A stretch of 64,000 bases of DNA from Candidatus Sungiibacteriota bacterium. Lineage in GTDB: Bacteria; Patescibacteriota; Minisyncoccia; Sungbacterales; HO2-52-23. Location: NCBI GenBank assembly GCA_016196115.1, contig JACPYI010000023.1, forward strand, positions 1,348-65,347, read 5' to 3'. The notes below the pieces were generated by a model. It saw nothing but the letters and a program-made list of their open reading frames with translations. It made no database searches and was not told where the DNA came from. Position 1 is the stretch's first letter; the number at the start of each line of letters is the position of its first letter. This document shows positions 14,807 through 63,558 of this stretch, one piece after another. The translations under genes and the position numbers were made by a program.

Positions 14807-14810
14807 ACGG

Positions 14811-15629: not shown

Positions 15630-15636
15630 ACCATAG

Positions 15637-27198: not shown

Positions 27199-27204
27199 GG
27201 CCAA

Positions 27205-38300: not shown

Positions 38301-38411
38301 TTTTGTGGCATGGCTGGCACCTTTATCTTCTCATAAGCAGACAAAAAAATCAAAAAAACGGCCTTGCCATGCGGTCGCGGCAAGGATATACTGAGAGACA
38401 AGCATACATTC

Positions 38412-40676: not shown

Positions 40677-40694
40677 TCACGAAAACATACTATC

Positions 40695-43068: not shown

Positions 43069-43069
43069 C

Positions 43070-47767: not shown

Positions 47768-48715
47768 ATGAAATGCGATTTCTGCACATTAACCGATAAA
47801 AACTACGTATATAAATGGCTGGCGCTTTGTAATTCCATCGAAACACATATCTCAAGGTATACAATATGGGTACTGTGCCTTGACGATGAGTCGGAAATAC
47901 TCATACGAAGGTTGGATAAAAAGAACGTGGAGATCGTGAATCTGTCGCATCTCCGCGACACGGAACTGGAAAGGGTCAGATCCTCCAGAACAAAACAGGA
48001 GTTTGCGTGGACATGCAAACCCTCGATCATGAGCTATATTCTGGGAGAAAAGAACGTGGCAGCGATGATATTTGTAGACGCCGATATGCTTTTTTATTCC
48101 TCGCCCGAACCTCTGTTTCAAAAATATACGGACGCGTCAATCATGATCACTTCGCATAAATTCTCGGAGAAAAAACAGTACATCGCGGACATCGTCGGCT
48201 ACTACAATTCAGGATTCATCATATTCAGAAACGACGGGACGAGCAGGGCATGCGTCCGAAGATGGAAAAATCAATGCATAGAGTGGTGCTACAATTTTCA
48301 CGACAAAGGCAGGCATGGCGATCAATCCTACCTGAAAAGCTGGCCGCAGGATTTTAAAAATGTAGAGGAGATATCAGAAAAAGGGGCGAACCTTGGCACA
48401 TGGAACCTTGAACGGTATACCGTAAGGAAAAAACGGGGCGAATTTTACATTGACGATGAAAAACTTATCTGCTACCATTTCCACGGACTGGTTGTATATC
48501 TGGAGAAACACGGTATTCTAAAACCATATCCCGCCACTGTCCACCAAAAAGAAATATACAAAATCTATCTCAAAGAACTCCAAAAAGCGTATAATGAAAT
48601 TATTGCCGTAGATCCTTCGTGGCATTATGGTTTTGCGGGAAAGCTTTCTCTTCTACGCAGGATTAAACAGCAACTTACCCAAAACACCAGAATCGTATGG
48701 CAATACATCCACTAA
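47768..48715 (+). CDS. Putative GT-A-fold nucleotide-diphospho-sugar transferase (DxD motif)
   Basis: IFVDADMLF (DXD) and YNSGFIIF, reminiscent of GT8/GT-A transferases. Start at ATG 47768. Confidence 0.45.
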   Translation: MKCDFCTLTDKNYVYKWLALCNSIETHISRYTIWVLCLDDESEILIRRLDKKNVEIVNLSHLRDTELERVRSSRTKQEFAWTCKPSIMSYILGEKNVAAMIFVDADMLFYSSPEPLFQKYTDASIMITSHKFSEKKQYIADIVGYYNSGFIIFRNDGTSRACVRRWKNQCIEWCYNFHDKGRHGDQSYLKSWPQDFKNVEEISEKGANLGTWNLERYTVRKKRGEFYIDDEKLICYHFHGLVVYLEKHGILKPYPATVHQKEIYKIYLKELQKAYNEIIAVDPSWHYGFAGKLSLLRRIKQQLTQNTRIVWQYIH

Positions 48716-49410
48716 GAAAACTGCTGTGGAAAACCGGCTTTGACGTTCGCCGCTACAGGCCGGAGCCGGATCAGCTTTTATGGCTCAAAGAAATCGGCAT
48801 ACAGACGATTGTTGACGTCGGTGCCAATATCGGGCAGTTTGCTCAAGACATCCGCTCTGCTCTCCCGGATGCGTATATCTATTCTTTTGAGCCGCTCAAA
48901 GATTGTTACGATGATCTTTTAATTGCGATGAAAAATGATAAAAAATTCAAAGCATTTAATGTGGCGCTTGGCGCTTTGAGCGAAGAGGTCACCATGCACC
49001 GCAATGATTACTCGGCCAGTTCGTCAATATTGGATATGGCGCAATCCCATAAAGACTTATATCCTTACACAAAAAATACTCATGACGAAAAAATCGTCGT
49101 GCGGCGGCTTGACGATATGCGCGAGCTGCATCCGGACAATCTTAAAAAAGAAATACTGATCAAGATAGATACCCAGGGTTATGAAGATCGGGTGATCAGG
49201 GGCGGAATCGAGTTTTTGAAAAATACGAAAGTAATCATTATCGAGACCTCTTTTATTACTCTCTATGAAGAACAACTATTATTTGCCGAAATATACAAAA
49301 TGCTTACTCTTCTCGGTTTCGTGTATAAGGGTTCCCTGCGCCGAAAATTTAATTTGAAAAATGGCGGGAATTTATACGAAGATTCCATTTTCGTGCACAA
49401 GTCAGAATGA
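48697..49410 (+). CDS. FkbM-family methyltransferase
   Basis: IVDVGANIGQF (motif I) and ILIKIDTQGYEDRV (FkbM signature). Confidence 0.75.
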   Translation: MAIHPLRKLLWKTGFDVRRYRPEPDQLLWLKEIGIQTIVDVGANIGQFAQDIRSALPDAYIYSFEPLKDCYDDLLIAMKNDKKFKAFNVALGALSEEVTMHRNDYSASSSILDMAQSHKDLYPYTKNTHDEKIVVRRLDDMRELHPDNLKKEILIKIDTQGYEDRVIRGGIEFLKNTKVIIIETSFITLYEEQLLFAEIYKMLTLLGFVYKGSLRRKFNLKNGGNLYEDSIFVHKSE

Positions 49411-49442: not shown

Positions 49443-50138
49443 TTACTGATGAGAAAACCAATCTCCCAGCAACACAAGTAACGCCCATATGCCATCACGA
49501 TACCGGATTTTCTTTCCTTGAGAGCTCGAGCGCGGATGATGCGAAATGGGAATCTCACCAATTGACAAGCCCCGGCGCGCAAGCGCCGCGGTAAAGAGAA
49601 GCTCGGCCTCAAATCCCCCAATGGGAAAATCACCAGCCACGCCAATGGGAAAAAGTTTGTAGCATGTCCATGCGTCGGTCAGCGAAAGGCCATACAGCAG
49701 GTTGAGCAGTTTGGTAATTATCCACACCCCCAAACGAGGTATAAAAAGCTCTGTCAGCTTCCGTCTCTTTAACAGATTGCGTGAACCGTATATGACATCC
49801 CCTTTGCCTTGTTCCAGACCATGTATCAGCCCACCAATTTCGTTCGTATCATACTCGAGATCCGCATCCTGGATTAAACAATAATCCCCGGTTGCCTCCT
49901 GAAGCCCGCGTTGCACACTCCATCCCTTTCCTTGATTCTTCTCCTGCAAAATAACTCTGATGCGATAGGTACAGTTTTGGAGCAGTTCTTTGGTGCCGTC
50001 GTCTGATCCGTCATCAACCACGATGATTTCTTTCTCCCAGTATTCGGGCAGCCGCGCCTGCTCCACCCGGCGAAGCAGCTCTTGGACGGTTTCTCGTTCA
50101 TTAAAGACCGGAATAATAATAGAAAGTTTTCGGGGCAT
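49443..50138 (-). CDS. Glycosyltransferase family 2 (short, DPM1-like)
   Basis: LSIIIPVFNERETV, VVDDGSDDGT, IQDADLEYD. Confidence 0.8.
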   Translation of the reverse strand: MPRKLSIIIPVFNERETVQELLRRVEQARLPEYWEKEIIVVDDGSDDGTKELLQNCTYRIRVILQEKNQGKGWSVQRGLQEATGDYCLIQDADLEYDTNEIGGLIHGLEQGKGDVIYGSRNLLKRRKLTELFIPRLGVWIITKLLNLLYGLSLTDAWTCYKLFPIGVAGDFPIGGFEAELLFTAALARRGLSIGEIPISHHPRSSSQGKKIRYRDGIWALLVLLGDWFSHQ

Positions 50139-50167
50139 ACATATCCTGTCGAGCTCATGGCACTACG

Positions 50168-51010
50168 TTAAAGAGTTTGTACGAGTTTTGCAAGAGCTTT
50201 TTGATCGTTCACCGGAAGCCAGCATCGTCCCGGAATACCATAGGAATAGAGTTTTTGTTCTTCTGCCAAGAGAGGAAACAGCACGTTTTCAAAATCTATT
50301 TTTTTTGAGAGATCAAACAGCCGCGGGAAGTATTCATACGCCGCGGGTGAAAACACGGTCACGCCGACGTGCGCCGGAATCGGAACGTGGGGATACATCT
50401 CGGTTTGCGCAACCACTCCGTCTGCGATCTTCATGCCGGTAAACGCGTACGGGGTGCCGTCGGCCACCACCGCAGTCGCGATCATGCCGCGCTTCAAACC
50501 GGCAAGATGCGCGGCAACCGCATCGCGGGCAAAGTCCCCTTCATAGTTGATGATCTGATCATCGGGATTGTGCACGATGCAGCTTTTGTCCGCGGGGATC
50601 GATCCGTTCTCAAGGGCATTGCGCATGGCACCCCCCTTGCCGACCGGATGTTCCGGATCATGGCTATATGCGATATTGACGCCGAGCCGGCTGCCATCGC
50701 CCAGCAGATCCTTGATGGAACCGGCATTATGGAAAACGAGCGCGACAAAATTCTGAAAGCCGGCGTCATGATACATCCGGATTATGCGCTCGATCATGGT
50801 ATCGCCGTTCGGCAGCACAACGGAATTTTTTTGCAGATGGTGGGGATCGGAAATCGTCTTGAAACGCGATCCCTCTCCGCCAGCCATGAGCGCCACCACG
50901 CAATTTCGCGTGAACGCAGCCCATTGGGCATCATCGATTTTCTCCCGGCTTCCTTCGTTGTATATTTCCTTTTGTAATCTTTTGAGCGCGTCTTTCATAG
51001 AGATAACCAT
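50168..51010 (-). CDS. Sugar-phosphate nucleotidyltransferase
   Basis: VALMAGGEGSRF (G-x-G-[TS]-R nucleotidyltransferase motif) and GMKIADG. Alternative start at 50998. Confidence 0.65.
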   Translation of the reverse strand: MVISMKDALKRLQKEIYNEGSREKIDDAQWAAFTRNCVVALMAGGEGSRFKTISDPHHLQKNSVVLPNGDTMIERIIRMYHDAGFQNFVALVFHNAGSIKDLLGDGSRLGVNIAYSHDPEHPVGKGGAMRNALENGSIPADKSCIVHNPDDQIINYEGDFARDAVAAHLAGLKRGMIATAVVADGTPYAFTGMKIADGVVAQTEMYPHVPIPAHVGVTVFSPAAYEYFPRLFDLSKKIDFENVLFPLLAEEQKLYSYGIPGRCWLPVNDQKALAKLVQTL

Positions 51011-51051: not shown

Positions 51052-52101
51052 CTATGACGCGAGAATTGCAATAATTTTTTCAACCAGCCCCTCGATGCGG
51101 TGATGCTCCACTACGATCGCGCGCATGGATTGGCAAAGGCGGGTGCGGGATGGGGCGTCCATATGCAGCAAAACAGGAAGTTTTTTGGCGAGATCGGCCG
51201 GATTCTTTTTTTGAAACATCAACAGATCGCGATAATCACCGAGCACGCCGTCGTACGCTTCGTTGCACGTCAACATCGAAAGACCGGTCGCCATGGCTTC
51301 AAGCCCGGCCTTGTCTAAACTTCCGGTCAAGCCCGGGTTTACGAAAATATCGGCCTGCCGCAGATGTTTCAGAATCTCTCTATGCGGCACACCGCCGACA
51401 AATTTAATAAAGCTGCCTAGTTTTTTCTCCTCAACCATATGATAGAGCGACTCTGCGTACGATTTTTGCTCCGGCGTACCTGCGCTCCCGACAATATCGG
51501 CTTGAAATTTTTTGCCCTCATGCATTAGTATTTCGAGCGCTTGGATGAGCGTGGCCTGATCTTTTGCCGGAGAGAGCCTGCCGATCATGATGATTTTTGG
51601 CACAGGATTTTCCGGACGCGCACTAGGGGCAAAATAATCCGTATCGATCCCCTGCCCTACAATACGCACTTTCGGACTCTGAATTCTGAAGCCGCTAGCG
51701 GTCGAGGTGAATATAATGCCCGACATCTTCTCCGCGAGGCGCAATGATGCGCTCACGGCCCCATGCGCGTACCACAGCGATATTTTTTTTCCAAGCAATT
51801 GCCATACCGGCCATCCCAGCAACACATAAATCTGATTCATGTGCACGAATATGGCGTCATAGGCAACCCGTTCACGCCAAATAAAATACCAAAAGCGCAG
51901 CACATATAGGATGCGGGAACGCCTATGTTCTTTTCCCAAAGAAAATATCCGAACATTCGACGGCAAGTGATGAGCTCCTTCCTCAAGGCAAATAACCGTA
52001 ATCGCCTCGCAGTGCTTGGCGAATTCCTCGATCCATCGGTGCATAAACCCAAGCACCTCGTCTCGCTCATCAACTTTTTGTGTGATAATGAGAAGTTTCA
52101 T
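51052..52101 (-). CDS. Glycosyltransferase family 4
   Basis: MKLLIITQKV start; GRLSPAKDQATLIQALEIL...FVNPGLTGSLDKAGLEAMATG (GT4 C-domain). Confidence 0.75.
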   Translation of the reverse strand: MKLLIITQKVDERDEVLGFMHRWIEEFAKHCEAITVICLEEGAHHLPSNVRIFSLGKEHRRSRILYVLRFWYFIWRERVAYDAIFVHMNQIYVLLGWPVWQLLGKKISLWYAHGAVSASLRLAEKMSGIIFTSTASGFRIQSPKVRIVGQGIDTDYFAPSARPENPVPKIIMIGRLSPAKDQATLIQALEILMHEGKKFQADIVGSAGTPEQKSYAESLYHMVEEKKLGSFIKFVGGVPHREILKHLRQADIFVNPGLTGSLDKAGLEAMATGLSMLTCNEAYDGVLGDYRDLLMFQKKNPADLAKKLPVLLHMDAPSRTRLCQSMRAIVVEHHRIEGLVEKIIAILAS

Positions 52102-52228
52102 AATATGCAGGAAATGTACGTCTTTGATATGTAACAATCTGCTTTCATTGATCAAGAAGTAACTTATGTATGGCTTTTGAAAACTCTTTTGAAGATTTGA
52201 ATCGTACCATCACAGCTTCTTATAGTTT

Positions 52229-53401
52229 TTATATTATACACCGCTCAAAACCTTTACGGTACAGCTGGAGGTACTCGCTCTCGCTGTGCGGTTTCATTTC
52301 GGCAAGCGTGTGGCGCGCCGCGTCGGCAAACGCATGGCGTTTTTCCGGGTGCTCGTATAGATCCAGAACCCCAGCAAGAAAGGCATCGCGGTCTCCCATC
52401 GGCACCACGCGGCCATTCACGCCGTCCCGCACTATTTCTCCGGCCAAGCCAACGTCGGTCATCACAAGCGGGACTCCGGCAGCCATTGCTTCCATCGCAA
52501 CCAATCCCCACCCCTCGTAATTCGACGAGATCAGAGATACATCAAAGCACTTGTAGAAAGAGGCAAGATCATTGCGCCACGGTTCGATCACGACGTTTTT
52601 GTTCAGTCCAAACCGCACAACTTTCTTTTGATAATTCGCCTTGTCCGGCCCGTCACCGACCAGGAAAAGAACGGCTGTGGGTTCCTGTTTTACAAAATCA
52701 GCCATCATCTTGATCAACATACTGAAATTTTTCTCTTTATCCACGAATCGTCCCACCGCGATCATCCGAAACGCATATTTTTTGAGACGCGTCAAATCTT
52801 CCGGCTTGGGAAACGAATCGCGGAGCGGTTCGAGATCGGTGAATATCGGCAAGACAAAAATTTTTGATTCCGGAATCCGAAGTTCGGCAACCAATGAGCG
52901 TTTGATCCGCTCGCTTACGACGCGCATGCAATCCGCGCGCGGGAGCAGAAATTGCGCGAGCAGCGCACGAAGATATTCTTTCCGCGAGGCGCGCCCATAC
53001 CGCGGACTCAACACATCAGTATGCACTTGCAATTGCAGCTTTATATTGAAACGGCGGGCAATGCGGTACGCAATCAGCCCGACTTCATCCGGTGCTTGGC
53101 TGGTGATGACGTCGAAACGGACGCGGCTCACAAGCTTCCTTGCTATGCGATACATGCGCCACCGCTGCAGCAACGGATTGCCTGCAGCCGGATAAAGGAA
53201 GAGGCGGCCGTTTTGCTCGTCCGGCGAGCGTGGAGTTTCACCAGAGCAAAAAAGTGATTGGGGTTCTCGTGCTTTGAAACTGGCGGTCATGACTATGATA
53301 TGCAGCTCGTCAAAAAGCTCCGCATAGCGCTTCATGCGTTTGCGCGCGCTGCTTCCGACAACGCAGATATTCGGATCTTGGGCAAGCATTAAAATTTTCA
53401 T
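52229..53401 (-). CDS. Glycosyltransferase family 4
   Basis: MKILMLAQDP; VGRFVDKEKNFSMLI...LISSNYEGWGLVAMEAMAAGVPLVMTDVGLAGEIV. Confidence 0.8.
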   Translation of the reverse strand: MKILMLAQDPNICVVGSSARKRMKRYAELFDELHIIVMTASFKAREPQSLFCSGETPRSPDEQNGRLFLYPAAGNPLLQRWRMYRIARKLVSRVRFDVITSQAPDEVGLIAYRIARRFNIKLQLQVHTDVLSPRYGRASRKEYLRALLAQFLLPRADCMRVVSERIKRSLVAELRIPESKIFVLPIFTDLEPLRDSFPKPEDLTRLKKYAFRMIAVGRFVDKEKNFSMLIKMMADFVKQEPTAVLFLVGDGPDKANYQKKVVRFGLNKNVVIEPWRNDLASFYKCFDVSLISSNYEGWGLVAMEAMAAGVPLVMTDVGLAGEIVRDGVNGRVVPMGDRDAFLAGVLDLYEHPEKRHAFADAARHTLAEMKPHSESEYLQLYRKGFERCII

Positions 53402-55710
53402 GCGTTTTTGAGCAGTGCCGTGATCTCATTCAGCATTCGTTGGGCCGAGAATGATCCTGCTTTTTCCCGCGCGCGCTCTGATAATCTACGGGTAAAATCA
53501 TGATCGTTCAGAAGCCGCATAACTGCAGCTTGCATCTGATTAATATTGTTCCAATCGAAAAACAAACCGGTTTCTCCATCCTGAATGAGCTCGATATTTC
53601 CTCCCGCGCGCGTCGTACAGACCGGAATTCCCAGAGCCATGGCTTCCAGTATAGCATGAGAGAAACCTTCGTATTTTGTATTGAGTATAAATATGTCACC
53701 GGCAATCAGTGATGTGAGAACGTCTTCATGCGATAAACTACCCGCTAACTCAATGACGAAGCCCGGTTCAGGAGCGCGTATTACATCTTCAACATGAACG
53801 GGACCACTACCAATAATTCTTAAACGAATATCGCGATCCGGGACATCTGCTCTTAATTTTTGCACGAGTTCAATCACGGCCTCAAACCCTTTCCACGGCA
53901 CGAGCCGACCGACGGAAATGAGCACAGTTCCCGAAAAACCGAGTTTTTCTCGCGCTTCGTTTTTGGTTAACATCCTGATAGGCGGATCAAAAGCGTTATA
54001 GATTACGGTAATGCGATCCCGGGGAACACCCCACCGCGTCACGACGCCACGCAGATATTCGCTCGGAACCACGATGCTGTCGGCACGACATGCTACCCAT
54101 CGCTCAAGCCGGCGAAGCATTTCCACCTTCCAGTCATATTTTTTCTCCAGAAACTCATCGAGTGGATCCGCAACGCCGAATCGCTGGCTGCCCTGTTCCC
54201 ATGCATAGTCCCCCACGATCTTGAGCACGAATTTTTTGCGGGTCAGCATGGCGGCTAAGGCAGCCGGGGCCCCGACCGAAACGGGATCCTGCGCGAAAAT
54301 AACGTCGGCGGCCAGGCCTCTCCAAAATATGTTCCAGAAATACGCGCCGTGGCGGATCAATTTTGGAAGATGGCGCACGGAACGGAACGGCAACACCGTC
54401 ACGACAAACCCGGATTTGGGCAACTCATCCTGCAGCAGTTTGCTGTACGTCGCGGGACCTCCGATTTCAGGCGGGAAAAGGCCGGTGGCGACAAGAATCC
54501 GGCAAGATAAGACCCGGTCAAAAACTTCTTCGTATTGTCCGGCAATCGAATCCCAAAGAAAGCGCTCGCGGATCATTTTTTTGCCGTTCTCGACGATTGA
54601 CCGGCTTAATCCAGGATCCTGCAGAAGGCGCATGATTTTCTCCGCGGCATCGCCCGGATCGTCAACTTTCGCGAACAACCCTGTTACCCCGTCCGTGATA
54701 ATATCAGGAATCCCGCCGACCCGAGTCCCGATAATGGGAACGCCGGCGGCAAGCGCTTCAACAAAAGAAACCCCCATCCCCTCGGAACGCGAAAGACGGA
54801 TAAAGATTGTTGCCTGATGCAGATGCGCCGGGATTTTTTCGAACGGGACGCTCCCGAAAAATTTGATCTCATGTTCAACCCCAAGCTCTTTGGCAAGAAA
54901 TCCAAGAGCGGACCTGTCCGGCCCGTCTCCGAGAATATGACATTGGAGCGGCTTCCCTTTATTCTTGAGAACGGCTATGGCACGGACAAGGGTATCAATG
55001 CCATTCTTTTCCACCAAGCGCGAGGTAGTGATGATAATTGGGGCATGCTCTATGTCATTCCCGACTTGATCGGGAATCCAGTCAGTACTGATTCTTGATT
55101 CCCGCTTTCGCGGGAATGACAGCAGACCATTTGCGCTTTTGTCGCGAAGACCGAAAAGATCTGCGTTAACTCCATTATGAATAAGTACGCACCGGCCGTG
55201 ATACCCGTATGCAGCCGCAACTTCCCCGAGATACGATGAGATCACGGTTACCTCATCCGCAAGCCAGAGCATCAGCCGGAGCGCCGCGCCGATCATGCCG
55301 AGCCGACCCGATGCAAGGCGGCTATCTCCGTACCCATACTGGATGTTGAGGACAAACGGATGCCGGGGCCGCAGTATTTTACAAAAAAAGGCAGCTACGG
55401 AGCCCTGCGAAATATCAACTCCCCACAGTATCGCCCTACCTTCCCCGCCGATGTTCCGCAGCGCCACAATGCAACCGAAAAACGGCAGGAGCCATTTATC
55501 GAATCCCCGACCAATACCCACCCGAATCACTTTTCCTTCGGGACGGATCTCGCACTTCGGAAGACGCCGGGAGAACCGACTCGTCACGATACGGACGTCA
55601 AAACGCCGGTTCAGCCTCCGACCGATTTCTTGAATCGCGGTTTCCACCCCTCCGACAAACGGATAATACGAGGTCGTGAAAATAATAAGTCTTGTTTTTT
55701 CCATCATCAC
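53398..55710 (-). CDS. Tandem double GT4 glycosyltransferase (two complete GT-B units in one 770-aa polypeptide) with a palindromic-element insertion in the first unit
   Basis: Unit 1: RLIIFTTSYYPFVGGVE...FIRLSRSEGMGVSFVEALAAGVPIIGT. Unit 2: RILVATGLFPPEIGGPA...FILNTKYEGFSHAILEAMALGIPVCTT. Confidence 0.75.
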   Translation of the reverse strand: MMMEKTRLIIFTTSYYPFVGGVETAIQEIGRRLNRRFDVRIVTSRFSRRLPKCEIRPEGKVIRVGIGRGFDKWLLPFFGCIVALRNIGGEGRAILWGVDISQGSVAAFFCKILRPRHPFVLNIQYGYGDSRLASGRLGMIGAALRLMLWLADEVTVISSYLGEVAAAYGYHGRCVLIHNGVNADLFGLRDKSANGLLSFPRKRESRISTDWIPDQVGNDIEHAPIIITTSRLVEKNGIDTLVRAIAVLKNKGKPLQCHILGDGPDRSALGFLAKELGVEHEIKFFGSVPFEKIPAHLHQATIFIRLSRSEGMGVSFVEALAAGVPIIGTRVGGIPDIITDGVTGLFAKVDDPGDAAEKIMRLLQDPGLSRSIVENGKKMIRERFLWDSIAGQYEEVFDRVLSCRILVATGLFPPEIGGPATYSKLLQDELPKSGFVVTVLPFRSVRHLPKLIRHGAYFWNIFWRGLAADVIFAQDPVSVGAPAALAAMLTRKKFVLKIVGDYAWEQGSQRFGVADPLDEFLEKKYDWKVEMLRRLERWVACRADSIVVPSEYLRGVVTRWGVPRDRITVIYNAFDPPIRMLTKNEAREKLGFSGTVLISVGRLVPWKGFEAVIELVQKLRADVPDRDIRLRIIGSGPVHVEDVIRAPEPGFVIELAGSLSHEDVLTSLIAGDIFILNTKYEGFSHAILEAMALGIPVCTTRAGGNIELIQDGETGLFFDWNNINQMQAAVMRLLNDHDFTRRLSERAREKAGSFSAQRMLNEITALLKNA
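55054..55120. repeat. Composite palindromic repeat element (two ATTCCC-N8/9-GGGAAT inverted repeats) embedded in-frame in the GT4 coding sequence
   Basis: gtcATTCCCGActtgaTCGGGAATccag...ATTCCCGCtttcGCGGGAATgac. It is the reverse complement of the element at 63662..63738, with a different central spacer. It encodes ...SFPRKRESRISTDWIPDQVGND... in the gene. Confidence 0.8.
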
Positions 55711-57038
55711 GTCAAAAAATGTTTCAGCACGAAAAAACCCAGCGCCCCAAGCGCGCTTAATCCGACTGCGCCGGCAAAAAGAACCCGGGAAGAAATTGAA
55801 AGTTTTCCCGGCAGCGCCGCAAGATTTGTACGCAGCGAGTTCATATCTTCTTTTGTATTGCTTGAGCTGTGAGAACCGAAAGGCGGGTTTCTTTTTGAAA
55901 ATGAGCGCGCAGGTTTTGTTTTCCCTGCAAAACCTTGTTCCGGGTTCGAGACGGGCGATGACGAACCGACTTGCGCCGCGACCGGTACGGACACTGCCCG
56001 GGAACTTGACGTTCCCGCAGGAACATAGGTAAACGCAACCGTGCCATTCGGATATTGAACAGTAAGCGGATAGAGCGCATTATCCGTCTGCAAAAGCCCT
56101 GTTACTGCATTGGAAAATGAAATTTCAGCACCCGGCGCAACCTTTGTTTTCGACGGCACAAAAAATTTCTTCTCTGTTGCGTCCTGAATGACCCAATCCC
56201 CTATGTCGCTCTCTACTGGAAGAGGGTTCAAAAACCGCAGGTATCCCTCCCTTCCTTCTACAACGCTCACCACCCGCATTTGGTTCGCAAGCACATGCAC
56301 CGTTGCATAATCCGATGCCCCATATTCACCGGAGTTCATATGCAATCCCACGATATACGTGCCCGGGATACGAAAAACATGGGTAATAAATTTCCCTTCC
56401 TGCGTTTCGCCATCGCCGAAATTCCACCAAAAACGCCCATTTTCCAGCGGTTCTTTTTTGAGCCCGACGGCGCTTCCGTTGAAACCCGCTGTCGAACCCG
56501 CAGGTACTGTCTGATCCGGTCCTGCGTCAACATTGATATTCACACTCGAAGAACCTCCTGATGGCAGGGGCGGCGGCGAAGGCGGCGGTGGCAGTGCCGC
56601 AGGAACAGGAGTGTTGCTTGACGCAGAAACGCCGGAGACGTTGATCGTCTGGCTCGCAATCCATGATGTTCCCGAATCCCGACCCCGTGTTTTTATGTTG
56701 ATCGTGTGAAGCCCCGCGACAGAATCCAGATAGTAGAACGTAAAATTCGCCGTGCCTTTGTTCATCCATGTTCTGGCGGGACTTGAGCTCGCGTTTAAAA
56801 ATTTTCCAGTCAGGGATGTTGACGAAAACTCCACGTCAATGGTCTCCTCGGTTTTGATCTCCTTATTATTCGCGTCTTGCGCCTGAATTTTCAGAACGCC
56901 GGAGAGTTCTCCGGGACGTACGGTCTGCGGATCTGTCGTAAATACAAAACGAGCGATTCCCGAGGCAGCCAAGACACTTCCTGTAAAAAACAGGACGCCG
57001 ACAAAAAGGAGAACGAGATTATTTCGCATTACGTTCAT
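55707..57038 (-). CDS. Secreted or membrane-anchored protein with PKD-like domain and C-terminal TM anchor
   Basis: N-terminal signal-like LVLLFVGVLFFTGSVLA; PKD signature DAGPDQTV...F.GS...WNFGDG; Pro-rich linker PPPPSPPPLP; C-terminal hydrophobic anchor VLFAGAVGLSALGALGFFVL. Confidence 0.65.
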   Translation of the reverse strand: MNVMRNNLVLLFVGVLFFTGSVLAASGIARFVFTTDPQTVRPGELSGVLKIQAQDANNKEIKTEETIDVEFSSTSLTGKFLNASSSPARTWMNKGTANFTFYYLDSVAGLHTINIKTRGRDSGTSWIASQTINVSGVSASSNTPVPAALPPPPSPPPLPSGGSSSVNINVDAGPDQTVPAGSTAGFNGSAVGLKKEPLENGRFWWNFGDGETQEGKFITHVFRIPGTYIVGLHMNSGEYGASDYATVHVLANQMRVVSVVEGREGYLRFLNPLPVESDIGDWVIQDATEKKFFVPSKTKVAPGAEISFSNAVTGLLQTDNALYPLTVQYPNGTVAFTYVPAGTSSSRAVSVPVAAQVGSSSPVSNPEQGFAGKTKPARSFSKRNPPFGSHSSSNTKEDMNSLRTNLAALPGKLSISSRVLFAGAVGLSALGALGFFVLKHFLT

Positions 57039-57729
57039 ACAGACGGCTGAGTGCATGCGCAAGATTTACATCACCGGGATTGGCCGCAATGCCTTCCTTC
57101 AAGACACCCTCGGCCTGCGCTTTTTTCTCTTTCAAGAAAAAAACATACAGATCGGATAGCCCGAGATATCCCATGACGTTCTTGGGATCCGCCTTGATCG
57201 CACCCCCATAACTTGCTTCCGCTTTTGGATAATCTTTCACATAGTTGGTGTAAAGATCCCCCAGGTTGAGAAACGCGGTTGCCTCATGCGGATGTATGAC
57301 ACTTTTATACAGCCAAATATCGCGGCTGCCTTCGTAATCGCCGATCGCTTTTTTGAGAAGCGCCAACTCCAGCCACGCCGCGGTATATTCCGGAGTTTCC
57401 TTGACCATCTTGGCATATTTCCGGACGTTTGCGGAGAGTTTATCTTTGTGTTCTCCGCTCATTGTCTCGAGTATTTCCGGCCTGAATTTTATCTCATCAA
57501 GAGGCCGGCCATGGTACGCGGACAGAGGTTTGGCGGGCTGGTTTTGGTTTGGGGTAAGAAGGTTTTCCGGATTCTGCGCATGAGGCGGCGAAGATGTCGC
57601 TGCTTCATTGCCCACCGGCGCAGATTGCGGCATCTCCGGGACGGAATGGAAAATTTTTTCCCGAAAGGCAATGCCGACCACGACCAGAAGCGCAACAATG
57701 ATTCCCACTACGATTTCCTTGTATGGCAT
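57019..57729 (-). CDS. Tetratricopeptide-repeat protein with N-terminal TM helix
   Basis: N-terminal IVVGIIVALLVVVGIAF; TPR-like helices (AWLELALLKKAIGDYEGS..., AFLNLGDLYTN..., GYLGLSDLYVF...). Confidence 0.6.
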   Translation of the reverse strand: MPYKEIVVGIIVALLVVVGIAFREKIFHSVPEMPQSAPVGNEAATSSPPHAQNPENLLTPNQNQPAKPLSAYHGRPLDEIKFRPEILETMSGEHKDKLSANVRKYAKMVKETPEYTAAWLELALLKKAIGDYEGSRDIWLYKSVIHPHEATAFLNLGDLYTNYVKDYPKAEASYGGAIKADPKNVMGYLGLSDLYVFFLKEKKAQAEGVLKEGIAANPGDVNLAHALSRLYERNAK

Positions 57730-57776
57730 ATATCACCACCATAGCATAGTCAATCCGCGGTGGTCAACCATAAATC

Positions 57777-57801
57777 AAAACCCCCCTGATCGGGGGGTTT
57801 T
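57777..57801 (-). terminator. Strong bidirectional rho-independent terminator (10-bp stem AAAACCCCCC/GGGGGGTTTT, loop TGATC)
   Basis: Perfect hairpin flanked by A/T runs, located 32 nt after the stop of the large surface-protein gene. Confidence 0.8.
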
Positions 57802-57832
57802 GACACTCGCTACACAAGGAGATTACGAGACT

Positions 57833-60800
57833 TTACTGCGATGACAAGCTCTCCTGGGTTGTCCCAAGTGCGGGCAGACCCATAACCTGATACCCGTTGG
57901 TAAAGTCAAGATCCTGAATCGTGTTCTGCGTCGTGGTGGAGATCGGCGACCAGATGAACTGGTTGTTCGTATCCGCATCAACCGAACTCGTTACTGCCGC
58001 GCCGCTTGCCGCTCCGGGAGCCGGGGCTCCTGCCTTTGACATCAGCGTTGCCGTGTTCACCGGATATGCCGCGCTACCATTCAAGTTAACCGTAATGGTA
58101 TCCTTGCTGGTGGTAATCGTAGACACATTGGCCGCAGTTGCGCGAAGCTGGAAGTACCGGGTCAAGCCGTTGGGCACGATATAGGTCGTGGTTGCCGTGC
58201 TGTTGCACGAGGTCTTGTCAGGATAGATGGAGACCGTCTGCGGACCGGCTGCCGTTGAGGAACGTCCATTAAAGCACGTGCCTGCGTTGATCAAACCAGT
58301 CGAGGAGAATGTCGAATCAATGATCGAGAATCCGGAATCGGTGAAGGCATACAGCGCATACGCGGAGGTTGTTGCAACACTGCCAGAGAGCGTGGATGAA
58401 CCGATCGCAAACTGGAACTTATAAAACGCCACATCGCCGCTCTTTGCCTGAACGCTGAACTTGTAGAGAATATTGTTCGCCTTGCTGGTGAGAATTTTCT
58501 CCGTGGAAGTCAATGGAATGTAGGTGACAATCGGATATGACCTCATGATCCTCACGCCGGCTGAACTGTTGTTGGCGCTGCTGCCTGTCGGGGTGATCGT
58601 GGCGCCCGATGCGACTCCGGTGCCGTAGGTGCCGGTCAAGCCCGTGTTCACTGTGTCGTAGTCAACAATCAGGTTATCTCCGGATCTGGTCAGGTTTGCA
58701 GTCGGACCGATTGCGGACATATCGCCCTTGATGACCAAGGTCTTTGATCCACCCTTCGGTACGCGGAATGCGCCAGACGTAATCAAGGATGAAGTTGCAT
58801 TGCCCGTGGAGTTGATGACCGCGGTACCGACCGCTACCATAGTATCTGCGTCGTACAGCGTCACCATGTTGTTCACCAGGTCATTCTGGGTGTTGGAAGC
58901 CGTGCCGGTCAGTTTCAAGGCGATCTGCTTGACGTCAATGTCTTCGTTGAGCGCGCTGAATTTGGTCCGTCCAAGCTCAACCCCGGTGGTGCCTGCCGCA
59001 ACAATCACGTAGCCGGGACTGTTGGTGTCAAGTACTGCCGAGAGAGACCCGCCGGATGATGCCGTCATCTGCTGACCCGCTGCCGTAGTAACTGTTTCCG
59101 AAATGGTCTGTCCGCTGCCAAGACCGGTTACTCCGGTCCAGCTGTTGGAAGATCCGCCTTGGAGGTTGTCAATACCCCACTGGTACACTCCGGTTGATCC
59201 GCTTCGCACATCGCACTTCATTGAGAGCGTCTTTGAGGCGCCTTTGGACAGCACCAAACCGGTTCCGTCAAAGGTAATGCTCGTTGAAGATGCAGTATCC
59301 GTGGACGCCGGATTTTTCTTGGTGTTGGTATTGAGCGACGTTGCCCCGTCGTACAACTGGCAGTTGGTCAGATCGTTTCTGTTACCCGATACCGCGTTGA
59401 AGTAGAGCGGGACAGATGATACACGCACATCTTCTCCGGATGCGGTCGTGTCAAAGTTGTACCTGGCAAACTCAAACTGAAGCGCTCCTGCGATTACGGT
59501 CTGCGCAACCGGTACGCTTTGCACGCTTACCGTGAGCGCACCCGTCTTTACCGTCATGGTGTTCATCGAGATTGCCGCTGCCGGTGATGGGGTAATGGAA
59601 TTGCCGCTGTTCTGACCTTTTGCTGATGCAAAGTCAGCGCTCGGCGTGGTTGATGCCTGGATTGTCGTGTTGTTGAGCAGATCAGATCCTACCCTGCCCT
59701 TGAGGGTATAGGTATGAAGACCAACCGGAAACGTAATACTCGTTGAGAAGACGAATACACCATTGGACGCTCCAGTTGTGTCGGTGGTATCTACTGCGCC
59801 TCCGTCAACCGGACCCGCAATCACGCTGCCATTCTCATCAACCAAGGTTACGTTGGTAAGGTCATTGACGCACGGGTTACTTGCAACCGCATCGCTGGCC
59901 ACACAACTATAGGCAGCGCCAGCGGGACGAACCAAAGCAACATTGAATGCTACTTTGTTTACGGTGATGGGCTCACCCCTTACATCAGCGGTAAATGCTC
60001 CCAATGGTACGTTTGGCACGTTGACCGCAATATTCTGTGCCGCCACCGAATTTGAGGAGCTGATGCTGATCGTGCCTGCCGATACGGTTACGGTACCGCC
60101 GGCATACCACGGATCCTCGCTTGAGGTGAAGTTCGGGCTGGTATGATCGGCAGCAGCCGTACCGGTTTGCGGAGGCAAGATGCCGAATCCGTAGGTCTGG
60201 CCATTTACGCCAATGTCAATTTTCTTTGCGATGTCAAAGATAACGGTACGGCCTGATCCGCCGGTAATATCGCCTTTAATCGATAGCTCCTTTGAGAATC
60301 CTTTATCAACCAGAATCCCCTGGCCGCTGTTATCGGTGAAGGTCGTGACATAATACTTGCCGTCCGAGCTGACAACCGTATCATAGGCGGTTCCGTCTAC
60401 ATATGTCTTGATATTTGCGAGGTCACCCGAGGCAACCGATCCGGTCTGATTCCAGCGGATGTACTTCAGATATACCTTTTCTGCAGATCCTGCAGTTAAG
60501 CGGATTGCCGAAAATGTATAGCCAAGCTGGCCGATGTTTTTCGTTACTGCCACGCCCGGATCAGTTGATCCGCGCTGCATGGTAACGGTGCCGATCGAAA
60601 CCGTGCTGTTATAGGTCTGGCCGTTGCCCACCAGCGGCGCTGTCGCAGAAACACCCGTTACTGCAGTGGTTCCTGCGTTCACGCCCACAAGAGCAAGCTG
60701 GATAACCTGACCGTTATAGGTACTGACTGCCGCGGTCATGTTGCCCGCAATGGTTAGTGTTCGTGTTGTTCCGGCCGCTACTTTCACCGGTTCATTCAAC

Positions 60801-61591
60801 AATACCTGATGAAGGGAGTTCAAGGTCTTGGAAAGACCGAGCTGCGCTCCGTTCTCATCCAGCAAGACCACGCTGTCAAGCGCCGCATCGTTGGACGGGC
60901 CCTTGCGTTCTGCCGTAAAACCGGTAATCATCACATCCCCGTCTGCCGATGCGGTAAACTTCACCCGCGTAAACGGTACACGGGCAGCTCCGCCCGGAGC
61001 AAGATTTGCCACTGGCTGATTCGCATCAAGCATAACCGTCAGCCCTGATGCTACCGGTGCCGCTGGTGTTGCTGGGGTGCCCGGCGTTGCCGGAGTTGCA
61101 GGTGTTACCGGAGTTGCTGGGGTGCCCGGCGTTGCCGGAGTTGCAGGTGTTGCAGCTACCTGCGAGCTGTATGCTGCGCGGGATTTTAGTCCGAAGTATC
61201 CGGATGTCGGGGAAACGCCGGCTGCTCTCTGCCATGCCACTACCCCGGCTTTGGTTAACGAGCCAAAATACCCGGTTGCAGTCACATTCAGGTATCCTCC
61301 TTCGATCAGAGCATTCTGAAGGCATGTGACATCATCCCCCCTTGACCCAACTTTGAGATTCCGGGCAAAGGTGCACCCGCCTGTTGCTGACGCTACGGCC
61401 GTTGAGCCGCCGTGCAGCGCATTGATCTGCGCCTGGAGCGCTGCGATCTGCGCCATCAACGAGTCAATGCTTGATGTCTGCGCGACTGCAGCCAACGGAA
61501 CAATGATCGCCGCTCCGGAAATCGTGATGGCTGTTGCCAGTGCCGCAACTTTCTTAAAACGACCGCCACCACTTAAGGGTAATATATTCAT
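57833..61591 (-). CDS. Large secreted cell-surface protein: signal peptide, peptidoglycan-binding domain, Thr-Pro-Ala repeat linker, then about 1000 aa of beta-rich (Ig-like) repeats
   Basis: Start MNILPLSGGG...; signal/anchor AALATAITISGAAIIVPLAAVA; PG_binding_1-like LKVGSRGDDVTCLQNALIEGGYL...GYFGSLTKAGVVAWQ; TPATPATPGTPATPVTPATPATPGTPATPAAP linker; Thr/Ser/Gly/Val-rich remainder. Confidence 0.8.
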   Translation of the reverse strand: MNILPLSGGGRFKKVAALATAITISGAAIIVPLAAVAQTSSIDSLMAQIAALQAQINALHGGSTAVASATGGCTFARNLKVGSRGDDVTCLQNALIEGGYLNVTATGYFGSLTKAGVVAWQRAAGVSPTSGYFGLKSRAAYSSQVAATPATPATPGTPATPVTPATPATPGTPATPAAPVASGLTVMLDANQPVANLAPGGAARVPFTRVKFTASADGDVMITGFTAERKGPSNDAALDSVVLLDENGAQLGLSKTLNSLHQVLLNEPVKVAAGTTRTLTIAGNMTAAVSTYNGQVIQLALVGVNAGTTAVTGVSATAPLVGNGQTYNSTVSIGTVTMQRGSTDPGVAVTKNIGQLGYTFSAIRLTAGSAEKVYLKYIRWNQTGSVASGDLANIKTYVDGTAYDTVVSSDGKYYVTTFTDNSGQGILVDKGFSKELSIKGDITGGSGRTVIFDIAKKIDIGVNGQTYGFGILPPQTGTAAADHTSPNFTSSEDPWYAGGTVTVSAGTISISSSNSVAAQNIAVNVPNVPLGAFTADVRGEPITVNKVAFNVALVRPAGAAYSCVASDAVASNPCVNDLTNVTLVDENGSVIAGPVDGGAVDTTDTTGASNGVFVFSTSITFPVGLHTYTLKGRVGSDLLNNTTIQASTTPSADFASAKGQNSGNSITPSPAAAISMNTMTVKTGALTVSVQSVPVAQTVIAGALQFEFARYNFDTTASGEDVRVSSVPLYFNAVSGNRNDLTNCQLYDGATSLNTNTKKNPASTDTASSTSITFDGTGLVLSKGASKTLSMKCDVRSGSTGVYQWGIDNLQGGSSNSWTGVTGLGSGQTISETVTTAAGQQMTASSGGSLSAVLDTNSPGYVIVAAGTTGVELGRTKFSALNEDIDVKQIALKLTGTASNTQNDLVNNMVTLYDADTMVAVGTAVINSTGNATSSLITSGAFRVPKGGSKTLVIKGDMSAIGPTANLTRSGDNLIVDYDTVNTGLTGTYGTGVASGATITPTGSSANNSSAGVRIMRSYPIVTYIPLTSTEKILTSKANNILYKFSVQAKSGDVAFYKFQFAIGSSTLSGSVATTSAYALYAFTDSGFSIIDSTFSSTGLINAGTCFNGRSSTAAGPQTVSIYPDKTSCNSTATTTYIVPNGLTRYFQLRATAANVSTITTSKDTITVNLNGSAAYPVNTATLMSKAGAPAPGAASGAAVTSSVDADTNNQFIWSPISTTTQNTIQDLDFTNGYQVMGLPALGTTQESLSSQ
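61060..61150. repeat. Tandem DNA repeats of about 39-45 bp encoding the (T-P-A/G) linker of the surface protein
   Basis: gttgctggggtgcccggcgttgccggagttgcaggtgtt occurs twice in tandem with partial flanking copies. Confidence 0.7.
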
Positions 61592-62098
61592 AATGTTTTT
61601 AATGTTTTTATTACTCACCGAAAATTTTCTGAACGCCTCACTTCTTACCCTTGTCGACGAACCGGGTAAGTAAAAGGCGTATTTTGATTTGAATAAATAA
61701 TGAAGAAGAATGCTTATGAAGCTCAAGTTCCCCTCATCCGTACCCCGCTTTCTGATATCTGACTTCTGATATCCGACATCAGAAAGCGGAGCACGGGCTT
61801 AAGGAGATCGACCGAATCTTGAAACTCCACGTGTAAAGAAACCTTCAAACTATGTTCAATATCGCACATCATTCTTTCAATTGTCAACGTCCTCTCCCAT
61901 CAGAAATAATCAGGGATCCCACATACGTTATAGCATAAGTATACTGTTCTCGCAAGAACACGCAAGTACACTTATCCACATCATGTATAGTATAGAACTG
62001 CCTGCACTGTTACACAAGTACCCCCCTGTGGATAACCGTGCCTAGTAACTAATACGCCAGCTTTTCAAGCATAGTTGCACAACATGGGCCAGCATACA

Positions 62099-62971
62099 CT
62101 ATATATCGAGTTTTTTCAAGTACCGCCGAAATTGTCGGCCAATCTCGCGATGCTTAAGCCCGACCCGCACCACTGCCTTGGCAAACCCGAGTTTTTCACC
62201 GCAGTCATAGAGCACTCCCTCATATTCATAGCCATACATCTCTCCTCCTTGTTTCAGATAGAGCTGGAAGGCGCCGGTCGCAAAAAGCTCTCCTCCGGGA
62301 CCCGGTTTCATAACGGCAAGGAGATCGAGCACCTCCGGAGTATAGATATATTTGCCGCGCGAGACAAGATTGGACGGGGCCTCCTCGATCTTTGGCTTCT
62401 CAATCATATCGGTCACCCTATATGTCCGATTGGAAATCTTCTGTACCCCCACAATACCATATCTTGAGACCATTTTTCTTGGAACCCGGTCAAGAGCAAG
62501 CACGGGTTTTTGATAGGTACCAAAAACATGCATCAATTGTTTCAGACACGGAACTTTAGCGTCAACCACGTCATCTTCGTATAGGACAGCGACCGGCTCG
62601 TCATGTCCGATAAGATGCCGCGCCTGCAACACGGCATGTCCTGGCCCGAGCGGTTCGCTTTCACGGACATACGTAAACCTGGCAAGCGACGAGATGGCGC
62701 GTATGCGGTCTGCAAGTTCGCTTCTCCCCCGATTGCGGAGAAAATACTCAAGCTCCGGAGAATAATCAAAATGGTCCTCTATGGCTCTTTTTCCCCGGCC
62801 TGTCACAAAAATTATGTCAGTGATACCGGAAGCAACCGCTTCTTCGACCAGAAACTGTATGACCGGCTTATCGATCAGAGGCAGCATGGCCTTTGGCTGC
62901 GCTTTGGTGGCAGGAAGGAATCGCGTGCCAAGGCCGGCAACCGGAATAATGACTTTGGTAAGAGGTCTCAT
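62099..62971 (-). CDS. galU: UTP--glucose-1-phosphate uridylyltransferase
   Basis: KVIIPVAGLGTRFLPATKAQPKAMLPLIDKPVIQFLVEEA and VEKP motifs; canonical GalU length. Confidence 0.85.
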   Translation of the reverse strand: MRPLTKVIIPVAGLGTRFLPATKAQPKAMLPLIDKPVIQFLVEEAVASGITDIIFVTGRGKRAIEDHFDYSPELEYFLRNRGRSELADRIRAISSLARFTYVRESEPLGPGHAVLQARHLIGHDEPVAVLYEDDVVDAKVPCLKQLMHVFGTYQKPVLALDRVPRKMVSRYGIVGVQKISNRTYRVTDMIEKPKIEEAPSNLVSRGKYIYTPEVLDLLAVMKPGPGGELFATGAFQLYLKQGGEMYGYEYEGVLYDCGEKLGFAKAVVRVGLKHREIGRQFRRYLKKLDI

Positions 62972-63558
62972 AGTAAGGAGTAACTGGTCCAGCGCTTTCG
63001 GCCGTCTTTTTTGAGAATATTCTTTTGCACCAGATCGTGCAAATCGCGCTGGATGGTTTTGGCGCTTACGCCGGTGAGTAAGGCGTAAAAATCGCTGATT
63101 TTCGCCTGTGACACTTTTTCCACAAACGTAAGTATCTTTTTCTGGCGATCCGTCATACGAGCATCTTCGCCGGCAATACGCAGTTTGGTTTTGTTTCCGG
63201 AAACATCCTGCTCTTGTTCATCATACGAAACATGATTCCCGGTAAGTTCCTGCCTGAAAAAATGTTCAAGAAATTCATACTCGCGCTCAAGAATCGTCAG
63301 ATTGATCGGCCGGACAAACCGCATGGAGCGGCTCACGCGCAAATACCCCTTGATGGTCTCAACCCTGCCAAGTAACGTGAGTGTCTCCTGCTCGTGGCGG
63401 TCGGTATATCCGTATTCAGTCACGCAACCAAAAATCTCATTGGCCTTCTCGCGCAGCTGGCGCTTGAGCGCCTCCCCCTGCGGAAAAAAATCAGTCACGC
63501 GATAGAGCGCCAAGGTCAGCTCAAATGTTTTTCGATGCAATTCTTGCGAGGTCTTCAT
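62968..63558 (-). CDS. Putative transcriptional regulator: N-terminal four-helix-bundle domain plus C-terminal DeoR-type HTH
   Basis: C-terminal ILTFVEKVSQAKISDFYALLTGVSAKTIQRDLHDLVQKNIL (DeoR-like HTH). ATGA overlap with galU. Confidence 0.55.
   Translation of the reverse strand: MKTSQELHRKTFELTLALYRVTDFFPQGEALKRQLREKANEIFGCVTEYGYTDRHEQETLTLLGRVETIKGYLRVSRSMRFVRPINLTILEREYEFLEHFFRQELTGNHVSYDEQEQDVSGNKTKLRIAGEDARMTDRQKKILTFVEKVSQAKISDFYALLTGVSAKTIQRDLHDLVQKNILKKDGRKRWTSYSLL

Follow-up and report, generated by a model that had tools for sequence, protein, structure and literature searches.

The window analysed here, a stretch of 64,000 nucleotides (nt) of contig JACPYI010000023.1 from a Candidatus Sungiibacteriota bacterium, carries on its minus strand a gene (57833..61591) for a giant surface protein of 1252 amino acids (aa) plus stop, hereafter named the giant. 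The protein is 100% identical to the NCBI entry 'MAG: peptidoglycan-binding protein [Candidatus Sungbacteria bacterium]', and its sequence is that of a modular surface protein, secreted and anchored to peptidoglycan, whose composition resembles that of S-layer proteins. The giant is, judging from alignment, the Sungbacteria member of a conserved and uncharacterised family of envelope proteins of about 1200 aa in the Paceibacteria (Parcubacteria/OD1), a large group of ultra-small bacteria that have not been cultured. With somewhat better than even confidence, we read it as a wall-bound modular envelope protein of the Paceibacteria, which acts as an S-layer-like main coat, is expressed from its own transcription unit, and is plausibly O-glycosylated. 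Microscopy has revealed S-layers in some members of the candidate phyla radiation, and a literature search returned no S-layer structural protein named for Parcubacteria.

The open reading frame extends over 57833..61726 (minus strand) when opened at an upstream TTG. The ATG at 61591, from which the 1252-aa protein is read, is kept together with the following codons in three Sungbacteria relatives, whose upstream sequence is divergent and interrupted by indels. The N-terminus, MNILPLSGGGRFKKVAALATAITISGAAIIVPLAAVA|QTSS, displays a basic n-region, a hydrophobic core and an AxA site, and represents a Sec-type signal peptide (aa 1-38; 61478..61591, minus strand) with predicted cleavage after AVA; its P..A.A pattern is kept in the family consensus. 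A PG_binding_1 domain (PF01471; aa 84-133; 61193..61342, minus strand) is recognised by Pfam with an E value of 3.3e-8 and 34 bits for a cutoff of 23, and is preceded by a short conserved helix (AQIxxLQAQ). In the AlphaFold2 (AF2) model, which spans residues 53-1252 and was computed from an input alignment of 68 homologs, the N-terminal part contains helices at positions 34-45, 59-72 and 83-93 of the model numbering. There follows a low-complexity linker rich in Thr, Pro and Ala (aa 146-182; 61046..61156, minus strand), delimited from the sequence, a repeat search and the AF2 model, with TPATPATPGTPATPVTPATPATPGTPATPAAP at about aa 148-179. In the DNA it corresponds to tandem repeats (period 9/27; 61068..61153), and in the model it is disordered, with a predicted local distance difference test (pLDDT) value below 50 at model residues 95-128. 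An earlier note on this DNA, made from the sequence alone, had described a 1252-aa protein with a signal sequence, a peptidoglycan-binding domain and a Thr-Pro-Ala linker, and these features are all borne out.

Beyond the linker, the AF2 model (mean pLDDT 84.9) is all-beta. It comprises five homologous beta-sandwich modules of about 160 aa (aa 183-1012; 58556..61045, minus strand; boundaries approximate), outlined from AF2 and hhalign, and a distinct C-terminal beta domain (aa 1013-1252; 57836..58555, minus strand), outlined from the alignment and hhalign. When segments of the family alignment were compared by hhalign, the five modules proved mutually homologous, with probabilities of 93-97.5%, and the C-terminal 240 aa distinct; together with the all-beta model, this mutual homology indicates that the Ig-like repeats announced in the earlier note are real. 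The C-terminal domain harbours the conserved Cys1106/Cys1129 and an invariant W..SP.S.T...D..N motif. Apart from PG_binding_1, no part of the giant is matched in Pfam or NCBIfam, and the modules are covered by no Pfam family. The long Thr/Ser/Val-rich body that had been proposed is also found: over about 1070 residues (aa 183-1252), it contains 13.4% T, 10.8% S, 10.7% A, 10.4% G and 9.0% V, compared with 4.8% T and 6.1% S in the other proteins of the window, with an isoelectric point of 5.2 and 8 Cys. N-glycosylation sequons in this body are at chance level (16 observed, 16.3 expected). The signal peptide, the PG_binding_1 domain and this acidic, T/S/A/V-rich composition agree with the earlier description of an S-layer-like surface protein, at least as far as composition is concerned.

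The giant gene constitutes its own transcription unit, as the earlier note had put forward, with a terminator and a promoter architecture that are both conserved. An intrinsic terminator (57774..57804, minus strand; 57777..57801 in the earlier note), with a 13-bp stem (7 GC) and a T-rich tail, lies 29 nt past the stop codon. Such a terminator follows the giant stop in 69 out of 79 homolog loci, versus 38 out of 250 control windows. On the other side, the gap of about 500 bp that had been noticed amounts to 507 bp of non-coding leader and promoter region (61592..62098, minus strand), defined from the open reading frame map, motif inspection and the alignment of relatives. It holds a promoter-like array composed of TTATCCACA (62035..62027, minus strand) followed by TTGTGT-N17-TATACT, a second promoter-like site, TTGACA-N18-GATATT, at 61887..61858, and a second copy of TTATCCACA, on the plus strand, at 61972..61980. 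The exact 9-mer is found 140-700 nt before the giant ATG in 54 of 67 loci, and in homolog loci a -35-like TTTGCA/TTGxxx stands 6-9 nt further on, ahead of TATAAT. The 9-mer is enriched, with 137 occurrences in 1.52 Mb where chance would give about 12, and rpoB and several further genes are preceded by it too, which suggests a general upstream element of promoters in Paceibacteria; a literature search found no paper pairing this motif with Patescibacteria. The 9-mer is identical to the DnaA-box consensus, and a replication origin (oriC) upstream of the giant was considered on account of the two perfect copies. This candidate was rejected, as the cumulative GC skew does not turn at this site and the 9-mer is promoter-proximal before many genes in many genomes.

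The mRNA leader of the giant (61592..61890, minus strand) is kept among the Sungbacteria relatives L001, L007 and L008, with the invariant blocks TTCAAGATTCGGTCGATCTCC, GGATGAGGGGAACTTGAGC and GTTCGTCGACAAGGGTAAGAAGTGAGGCGTTCA, between which a long hairpin (about 61750-61800) is present, the sequence of which varies between genomes. At gathering thresholds, Rfam gave no match in the whole window, so the leader belongs to no riboswitch or RNA family known so far; it may act as a stabilising or regulatory 5' untranslated region. Taken together, a separate promoter, a leader of several hundred nt and a strong terminator fit very high and separately tuned expression of the giant.

With regard to the family, a protein search found 566 homologs. 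Among the matches listed (120 of the 566), the proteins are near full-length, mostly 1150-1280 aa with few truncated, share 44-80% identity with the giant, and come from Sung-, Giovannoni-, Yanofsky-, Harrison-, Niyogi- and Kerfeldbacteria and other Paceibacteria. When one genome per species was scanned, at least 246 Paceibacteria species genomes proved to hold a relative. Full-length identity across the family ranges from 40% to 58%, and in the alignment of 68 sequences the columns are on average 47% identical, dozens of Gly, Asp, Asn and Trp residues are invariant, and a Cys pair is conserved. By these measures, conservation is unusually strong for a surface protein. The composition, the separate transcription unit with its long leader and strong terminator, and the near-universal presence all fit an S-layer-like role, and from these sequence features we consider that the giant is probably the main outer coat protein of these bacteria.

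Of note, 19 extra family members occur downstream of the main copy, namely paralogs of 830-1300 aa and three C-terminal pieces of split giant open reading frames. These extra copies are on the same strand, 1-5 genes or 1.5-6 kb downstream, and are present in loci L018, L033, L036, L042, L051, L052, L058, L079, L082 and others.

The gene neighbourhood was compared after calling and clustering open reading frames in 84 non-redundant species-level loci. The conserved core consists of three co-directional genes, which code for an HTH (DeoR-like) protein, the giant and a membrane-anchored TPR protein. The HTH gene (62968..63558, minus strand) is the upstream partner in 69 of the 84 loci, and the small TPR protein with an N-terminal membrane anchor (57019..57729, minus strand) is the downstream partner in 71, at position +1 in 50; both are always on the strand of the giant. 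Further upstream, on the opposite strand, FtsK and RecA are encoded in about half of the loci.

In one related lineage, this core is joined by putative protein O-mannosyltransferases (PMTs). In 9 of the 84 loci, the giant is immediately followed on its own strand by one or, often, two genes for polytopic proteins of about 550 aa, which form a single clade; they usually lie 94-250 bp from the giant and ahead of the TPR gene. These proteins, named 'glycosyltransferase family 39 protein' at NCBI, pass Pfam PMT_2 (PF13231; E 1e-19 to 1e-30) as well as PMT (PF02366; E 1e-11 to 1e-17). They carry an invariant Asp38 and a near-invariant Glu39 past the first transmembrane helix. Compared with the sequences of the PDB, the profile of the clade matches yeast Pmt1 (3e-8), Pmt4 (8e-8) and Pmt2 (1e-5), fungal Pmt4 (3e-4), and then ArnT (6e-4). 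Reverse look-ups from four PMT-clade proteins on long contigs led in 4/4 cases to an adjoining giant of 1211-1253 aa, which by alignment is a family member with 44-52% identity to the protein of the window. The cluster order there is ClpB, an unassigned gene (x), HTH-like, giant, PMT, mini protein, TPR, PMT, three or four glycosyltransferases of family 4 (GT4), and a GT2, a methyltransferase or a further PMT_2 protein. As the giants of the PMT-linked clusters are just 45-59% identical to each other, the linkage between giant and PMT is old. Several features were noticed within these clusters. Between the PMT and TPR genes, a mini giant of about 320 aa (L087:10664-11617, L088:7164-8168, L089:10832-11788, L090:10623-11594) combines a transmembrane segment or signal, a PG_binding_1 domain, a coiled helix, a poly-Pro or Thr-rich linker and one beta-sandwich module. 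In L088 (4122-4699 and 6607-7112), ParDE and HicAB toxin-antitoxin pairs are inserted among the giant, PMT and mini genes, with the cluster order intact.

The window itself possesses a GT4 operon downstream of the giant (51052..55710, minus strand), composed of a fused double GT4 (770 aa) and GT4 proteins of 390 and 367 aa. It is collinear and orthologous with the GT4 genes of the PMT-containing clusters (34-48% identity over the full length), and this orthology indicates that the glycosylation module linked to the giant in those clusters is present in the window too, except for its PMT genes. The position of the GT39-like PMT genes, wedged between giant and TPR in the related lineage, makes it plausible that the giant is O-glycosylated on Ser/Thr, and actinobacterial Pmt provides a precedent for O-glycosylation of this type. 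Resting on synteny and precedent, O-glycosylation of the giant by cluster-encoded enzymes is, in our estimate, a plausible proposal that falls just short of an even chance.

The earlier note had proposed the Thr/Pro linker as the acceptor, which stands only in part. A low-complexity spacer occupies this position in nearly all homologs, and the majority of these spacers are Thr-rich, with TP, TTP, poly-T of up to 13 residues, and TTGG or TG repeats. However, some consist purely of Pro, Gly and Val, including those of the PMT-adjacent L089 (CVPGAPSAGGPAPVVPPVVVGG) and L013, which are almost devoid of Ser/Thr. Given these Thr-free linkers next to PMT genes, a Thr-Pro linker cannot be the universal acceptor if the giant is the substrate of the PMT enzymes. 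As a separate observation, the giants of L027, L052, L071, L077 and L085 carry, within a Thr-rich linker, one or two Cys-bounded inserts of the form GCTS(T/A)xG(F/Y)S(P)xTGQxC.

These linkers devoid of Ser/Thr are the first of several observations that weigh against the reading of the giant as an O-glycosylated main coat; the others concern its fold, its conservation, and the enzymes encoded around it. When the whole model of about 1200 residues was compared with the PDB by Foldseek, generic multi-Ig matches with template-modelling (TM) scores of 0.08-0.18 were obtained: PrgB Ig domains, the MG domains of alpha-2-macroglobulin/TEP, integrin legs and streptococcal antigen I/II. The Haloferax S-layer protein csg (7ptp) came at rank 33, with TM scores of 0.14-0.18, and the giant family is far more conserved than usual S-layer proteins. 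Two of the best matches, the Ig-like domains of the adhesin PrgB and streptococcal antigen I/II, suit another explanation, according to which the giant is a long wall-anchored adhesin, like Gram-positive Ig-fold adhesins, used by episymbionts for host attachment and forming no lattice coat. The tandem paralogs downstream in some loci point in the same direction. So does the finding that methanogen-attached Paceibacteria highly express secreted peptidoglycan-binding-domain proteins, for which the authors propose a host-attachment role (PMC10936435). However, the one gene among those highly expressed that we checked measures 2079 nt and is not clearly of the giant family. Moreover, the 40-58% full-length identity and the dozens of invariant residues are maintained over many lineages with presumably different hosts, and synteny, promoter and terminator are the same everywhere. 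At the level of sequence, high conservation and fixed partners (HTH and TPR) argue for structural housekeeping over a host-specific adhesin, which we regard as rather unlikely, and the S-layer-like main coat remains our preferred reading.

With regard to glycosylation, the PMT genes accompany the giant in one sub-lineage. The earlier expectation that homologs of the giant co-occur with PMT-like genes is correct for the 9 loci and the four reverse look-ups given above, but about 80% of the homolog loci have no glycosyltransferase within 10 kb of the giant. The hidden Markov model of the PMT clade gave no match on the 64-kb window, and even where giant and PMT genes are adjacent, a strong terminator separates them. 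The window does encode two other GT-C candidates, which had been described as enzymes of the protein-O-mannosyltransferase/ArnT type located with the giant. They are not adjacent to it: the gene for a 461-aa protein is 12.8 kb and that for a 770-aa protein 17 kb away, the latter on the opposite strand, with unrelated genes between.

The 461-aa protein, of the PMT_2 family and GT-C fold (43672..45057, minus strand), belongs to a Gtr-type module (42370..46615, minus strand), which also comprises a GT4 fused to a GtrA domain (45035-46615), a methyltransferase (43070-43675), both assigned by domain matches, and a Dpm1/AglJ-like GT2 of 246 aa assigned by a profile match (42370-43110), all on the same strand. 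Its own PMT_2 match (E 0.011) is under the Pfam cutoff and PF02366 is not matched, while its homologs carry PMT_2; the family profile had no meaningful match among PDB sequences. The AF2 model is of high quality (pLDDT 93.7; predicted TM score 0.92), and its top 31 Foldseek matches are all of GT-C type, with AglB/STT3/PglB first, then ArnT, Pmt4/Pmt2, AftB, Emb, ALG9 and PIG-U (a GPI-transamidase subunit). The modelled structure thus identifies a GT-C fold, which is no nearer to protein O-mannosyltransferases than to oligosaccharyltransferases, ArnT or Emb. Within the family, G45/D47 are invariant. Members fused to GtrA (P0252, P0253, P0255), to GT2 (P0247, P0258, P0267, P0344) and to a methyltransferase (P0348) were found, and these natural fusions imply a functional tie among the three neighbouring genes of the window. 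They bear, as judged from domain content, the signature of generic Gtr-type three-component glycosylation, an arrangement that serves as well to modify O-antigens, teichoic acids and wall polysaccharides.

The second candidate is a polytopic membrane protein of 770 aa (38364..40676, plus strand), encoded with a GT2 of 315 aa (40695..41642) and a methyltransferase in a segment at 38364..42363 (plus strand). None of 48 members of its family has a Pfam match, and the family profile has none in the PDB. The family is small, with 151 representatives among 1.84 billion proteins, and carries an invariant F139/D142/D143 loop motif (F-x-x-D-D, YDDFE). With this motif and the adjacent GtrB-like GT2, it may represent an undescribed GT-C-like family. 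Of the claim of two GT-C enzymes of PMT/ArnT type, the GT-C fold of the 461-aa protein is thus upheld by AF2 and Foldseek, but neither protein falls in the giant-linked PMT clade: membership was considered for both and rejected, hhalign giving probabilities of 17% for the 461-aa and 6% for the 770-aa protein. As for the claimed lipid-linked donor synthases, the 315-aa GT2, of GtrB/PgfS/ArnC type, matches PgfS (2e-68) and ArnC (1e-50) over its full length, below the equivalog cutoff, and the GT2s of 246 and 231 aa are AglJ, Dol-P-hexose and PpgS-like, likewise below equivalog cutoffs.

In the model of the earlier note, the Thr-Pro-Ala linker of the giant would receive O-glycans from these 461-aa and 770-aa enzymes, with the GT2 proteins as donor synthases. 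In favour of this model are the GT-C fold of the 461-aa protein, the GtrB/PgfS-type GT2 adjoining the gene of the 770-aa protein, and the gene order of the close relative L007, where the ortholog of the 461-aa protein is encoded on the strand of the giant, 9 kb downstream. In streptococci, moreover, pairs of a GT2 and a GT-C enzyme (GtrB-PgtC2, PgfS-PgfM1) O-glycosylate Ser/Thr-rich disordered regions of surface proteins (PMC12041528). The distance of both genes, the opposite strand of one, the intervening unrelated genes, their exclusion from the PMT clade, the lack of a detectable family for the 770-aa protein, and a linker that is not kept as a Ser/Thr tract in all homologs nevertheless make this model improbable.

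The surroundings of these modules suggest a different product. The window holds a glycan island of about 45 kb, which includes a Wzm/Wzt ABC exporter (ABC-2 and a Wzt with Wzt_C domain, by Pfam; 13535..15701, minus strand), FkbM methyltransferases, an MBOAT protein and sugar-nucleotide enzymes. Three FkbM-type methyltransferases and the MBOAT protein with an unannotated 367-aa partner were located at 16539..17390, 36508..37371, 48697..49410 and 26101..28680. Such a gene content would suit a polysaccharide exported by the ABC transporter as a wall glycopolymer, with caps added by methylation and with O-acyl groups. Closer to the giant, an NTP_transferase (280 aa) and a Dpm1/AglJ-like GT2 (231 aa) are encoded at 49443..51010, and between the GT4 operon and the TPR gene lies a gene for a PKD-domain protein that has a Pro/Ser-rich linker and ends in a transmembrane anchor (55707..57062), specific to the Sungbacteria-type cluster; all of these are on the minus strand.

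The main alternative to glycosylation of the giant is therefore that the neighbouring GT4, PMT-like and Gtr genes build a wall glycopolymer or lipoglycan, the giant being unglycosylated and located nearby through clustering of envelope genes, or as an anchoring or assembly partner of the polymer. There is precedent for such proximity in Clostridioides difficile and Bacillus anthracis, where S-layer genes lie beside secondary-cell-wall-polymer loci, and the combination of GT4 and GT-C enzymes is also a pattern of lipoglycan and wall-polymer synthesis. The glycan island with its exporter, the fusions of the 461-aa family to GtrA, GT2 or a methyltransferase, the fold of the 461-aa protein without PMT preference, the terminator between the giant and the downstream genes, the majority of loci without glycosyltransferases, and the Thr-free linkers of some PMT-linked giants are all in line with this view. 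It accounts less well for the PMT clade, which is always downstream, on the same strand and between giant and TPR, in the 9 loci as in the 4/4 reverse look-ups, and the profile of which is nearest to genuine protein O-mannosyltransferases. The anchor of the giant, furthermore, is of a peptidoglycan-binding type and not of the polymer-binding SLH or CWB2 types. We consider synthesis of a polymer with an unglycosylated giant a substantial possibility, albeit one that we would not expect to prevail, and retain the plausibly O-glycosylated coat as the preferred reading.

Among known systems, Gram-positive S-layer glycoproteins and their slg clusters, such as SgsE of Geobacillus stearothermophilus with WsaA-F and Wzm/Wzt, offer a comparison. 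Like S-layer proteins, the giant is predicted to be secreted, measures about 120 kDa, is acidic, rich in Thr, Ser, Ala and Val, poor in Cys, and has an N-terminal wall anchor; like them too, its gene is a strongly terminated unit with a long leader beside a glycan cluster with an ABC exporter. By contrast, its anchor is PG_binding_1 instead of SLH/CWB2, and its family is the more conserved one. Unlike slg clusters, the window has the Wzm/Wzt exporter but yielded no Pfam match to Wzy_C, the type of O-oligosaccharyltransferase represented by WsaB, in any of its open reading frames scanned.

The PMT clade of the relatives resembles the GT39 PMTs (yeast Pmt1/2/4; actinobacterial Pmt with Ppm1) in passing Pfam PMT and PMT_2, and its Asp-Glu pair past the first transmembrane helix may correspond to D77/E78 of Pmt1. 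The presumed substrate is, as in those systems, a protein predicted to be Sec-exported, with Thr-rich disordered regions in most homologs, and the window contains homologs of GT2 polyprenyl-phosphate sugar synthases. The similarity is nonetheless remote (E 3e-8 over about 140 residues), ArnT is matched as well, and the window has no such gene; unlike in actinobacterial Pmt systems, the clade is accompanied by a separate conserved TPR protein and a GT4 operon. The window's own modules are closer to the Gtr three-component systems (GtrA/GtrB/GtrC; CsbB/GtcA/YfhO; GtrB-PgtC2 and PgfS-PgfM1), since a GtrB/PgfS/ArnC-type GT2, a GtrA domain and a GT-C-fold enzyme occur together. They differ from YfhO systems in that the GT-C enzyme is of a PMT_2-like family, and the Gtr architecture does not identify a protein acceptor. 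Finally, eukaryotic TMTC1-4 and TMEM260 O-mannosylate cadherin and IPT beta-sandwich domains, with TPR fused to GT-C in eukaryotes. The association of GT-C and TPR with a substrate of tandem Ig-like beta-sandwiches is similar here, by analogy alone, but the TPR protein is a separate small membrane protein.

We can propose from these data how the system may operate. The giant would be exported by the Sec pathway and its signal peptide cleaved, after which the N-terminal helix and the PG_binding_1 domain would attach it to peptidoglycan without a covalent bond. The disordered Thr/Pro spacer would span the wall, so that the five modules and the C-terminal domain would be displayed outside, where an abundant giant would most likely form the main proteinaceous outer layer, possibly as an S-layer-like lattice. 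The HTH protein encoded upstream may participate in regulation and the TPR protein encoded downstream in assembly. The downstream GT4 operon would be part of a glycosylation module evolutionarily tied to the giant gene, and Ser/Thr residues of the giant, in the linker or elsewhere, may be O-glycosylated. The two remote GT-C candidates of the window, as Gtr-type modules of the ABC-exporting island, would more likely decorate the wall glycopolymer. A bolder version, which we consider a long shot, is that the Paceibacteria coat is made from one modular protein, modified on its folded beta-sandwich modules, and not on the linker alone, by a dedicated TPR-assisted GT39-like system that would be the bacterial counterpart of TMTC/TMEM260, and that the giant/PMT/TPR/GT4 cluster would be the first defined envelope-biogenesis module of the candidate phyla radiation.

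The giant is thus of a known kind, a wall-anchored modular surface protein and possibly a glycoprotein. Its form is uncharacterised, the distinguishing features being a new module family without a Pfam model, the PG_binding_1 anchor, the conserved HTH/giant/TPR core, and one lineage with a GT39-like, TPR and GT4 cluster. The cell envelope of the candidate phyla radiation is largely undefined, and the giant family offers a concrete candidate for a structural protein in hundreds of species. Together with the linked GT39-like, TPR and GT4 genes and a high-confidence AF2 model, it provides testable targets, and if the link to glycosylation is true, PMT-type protein O-glycosylation would extend well beyond the Actinobacteria.

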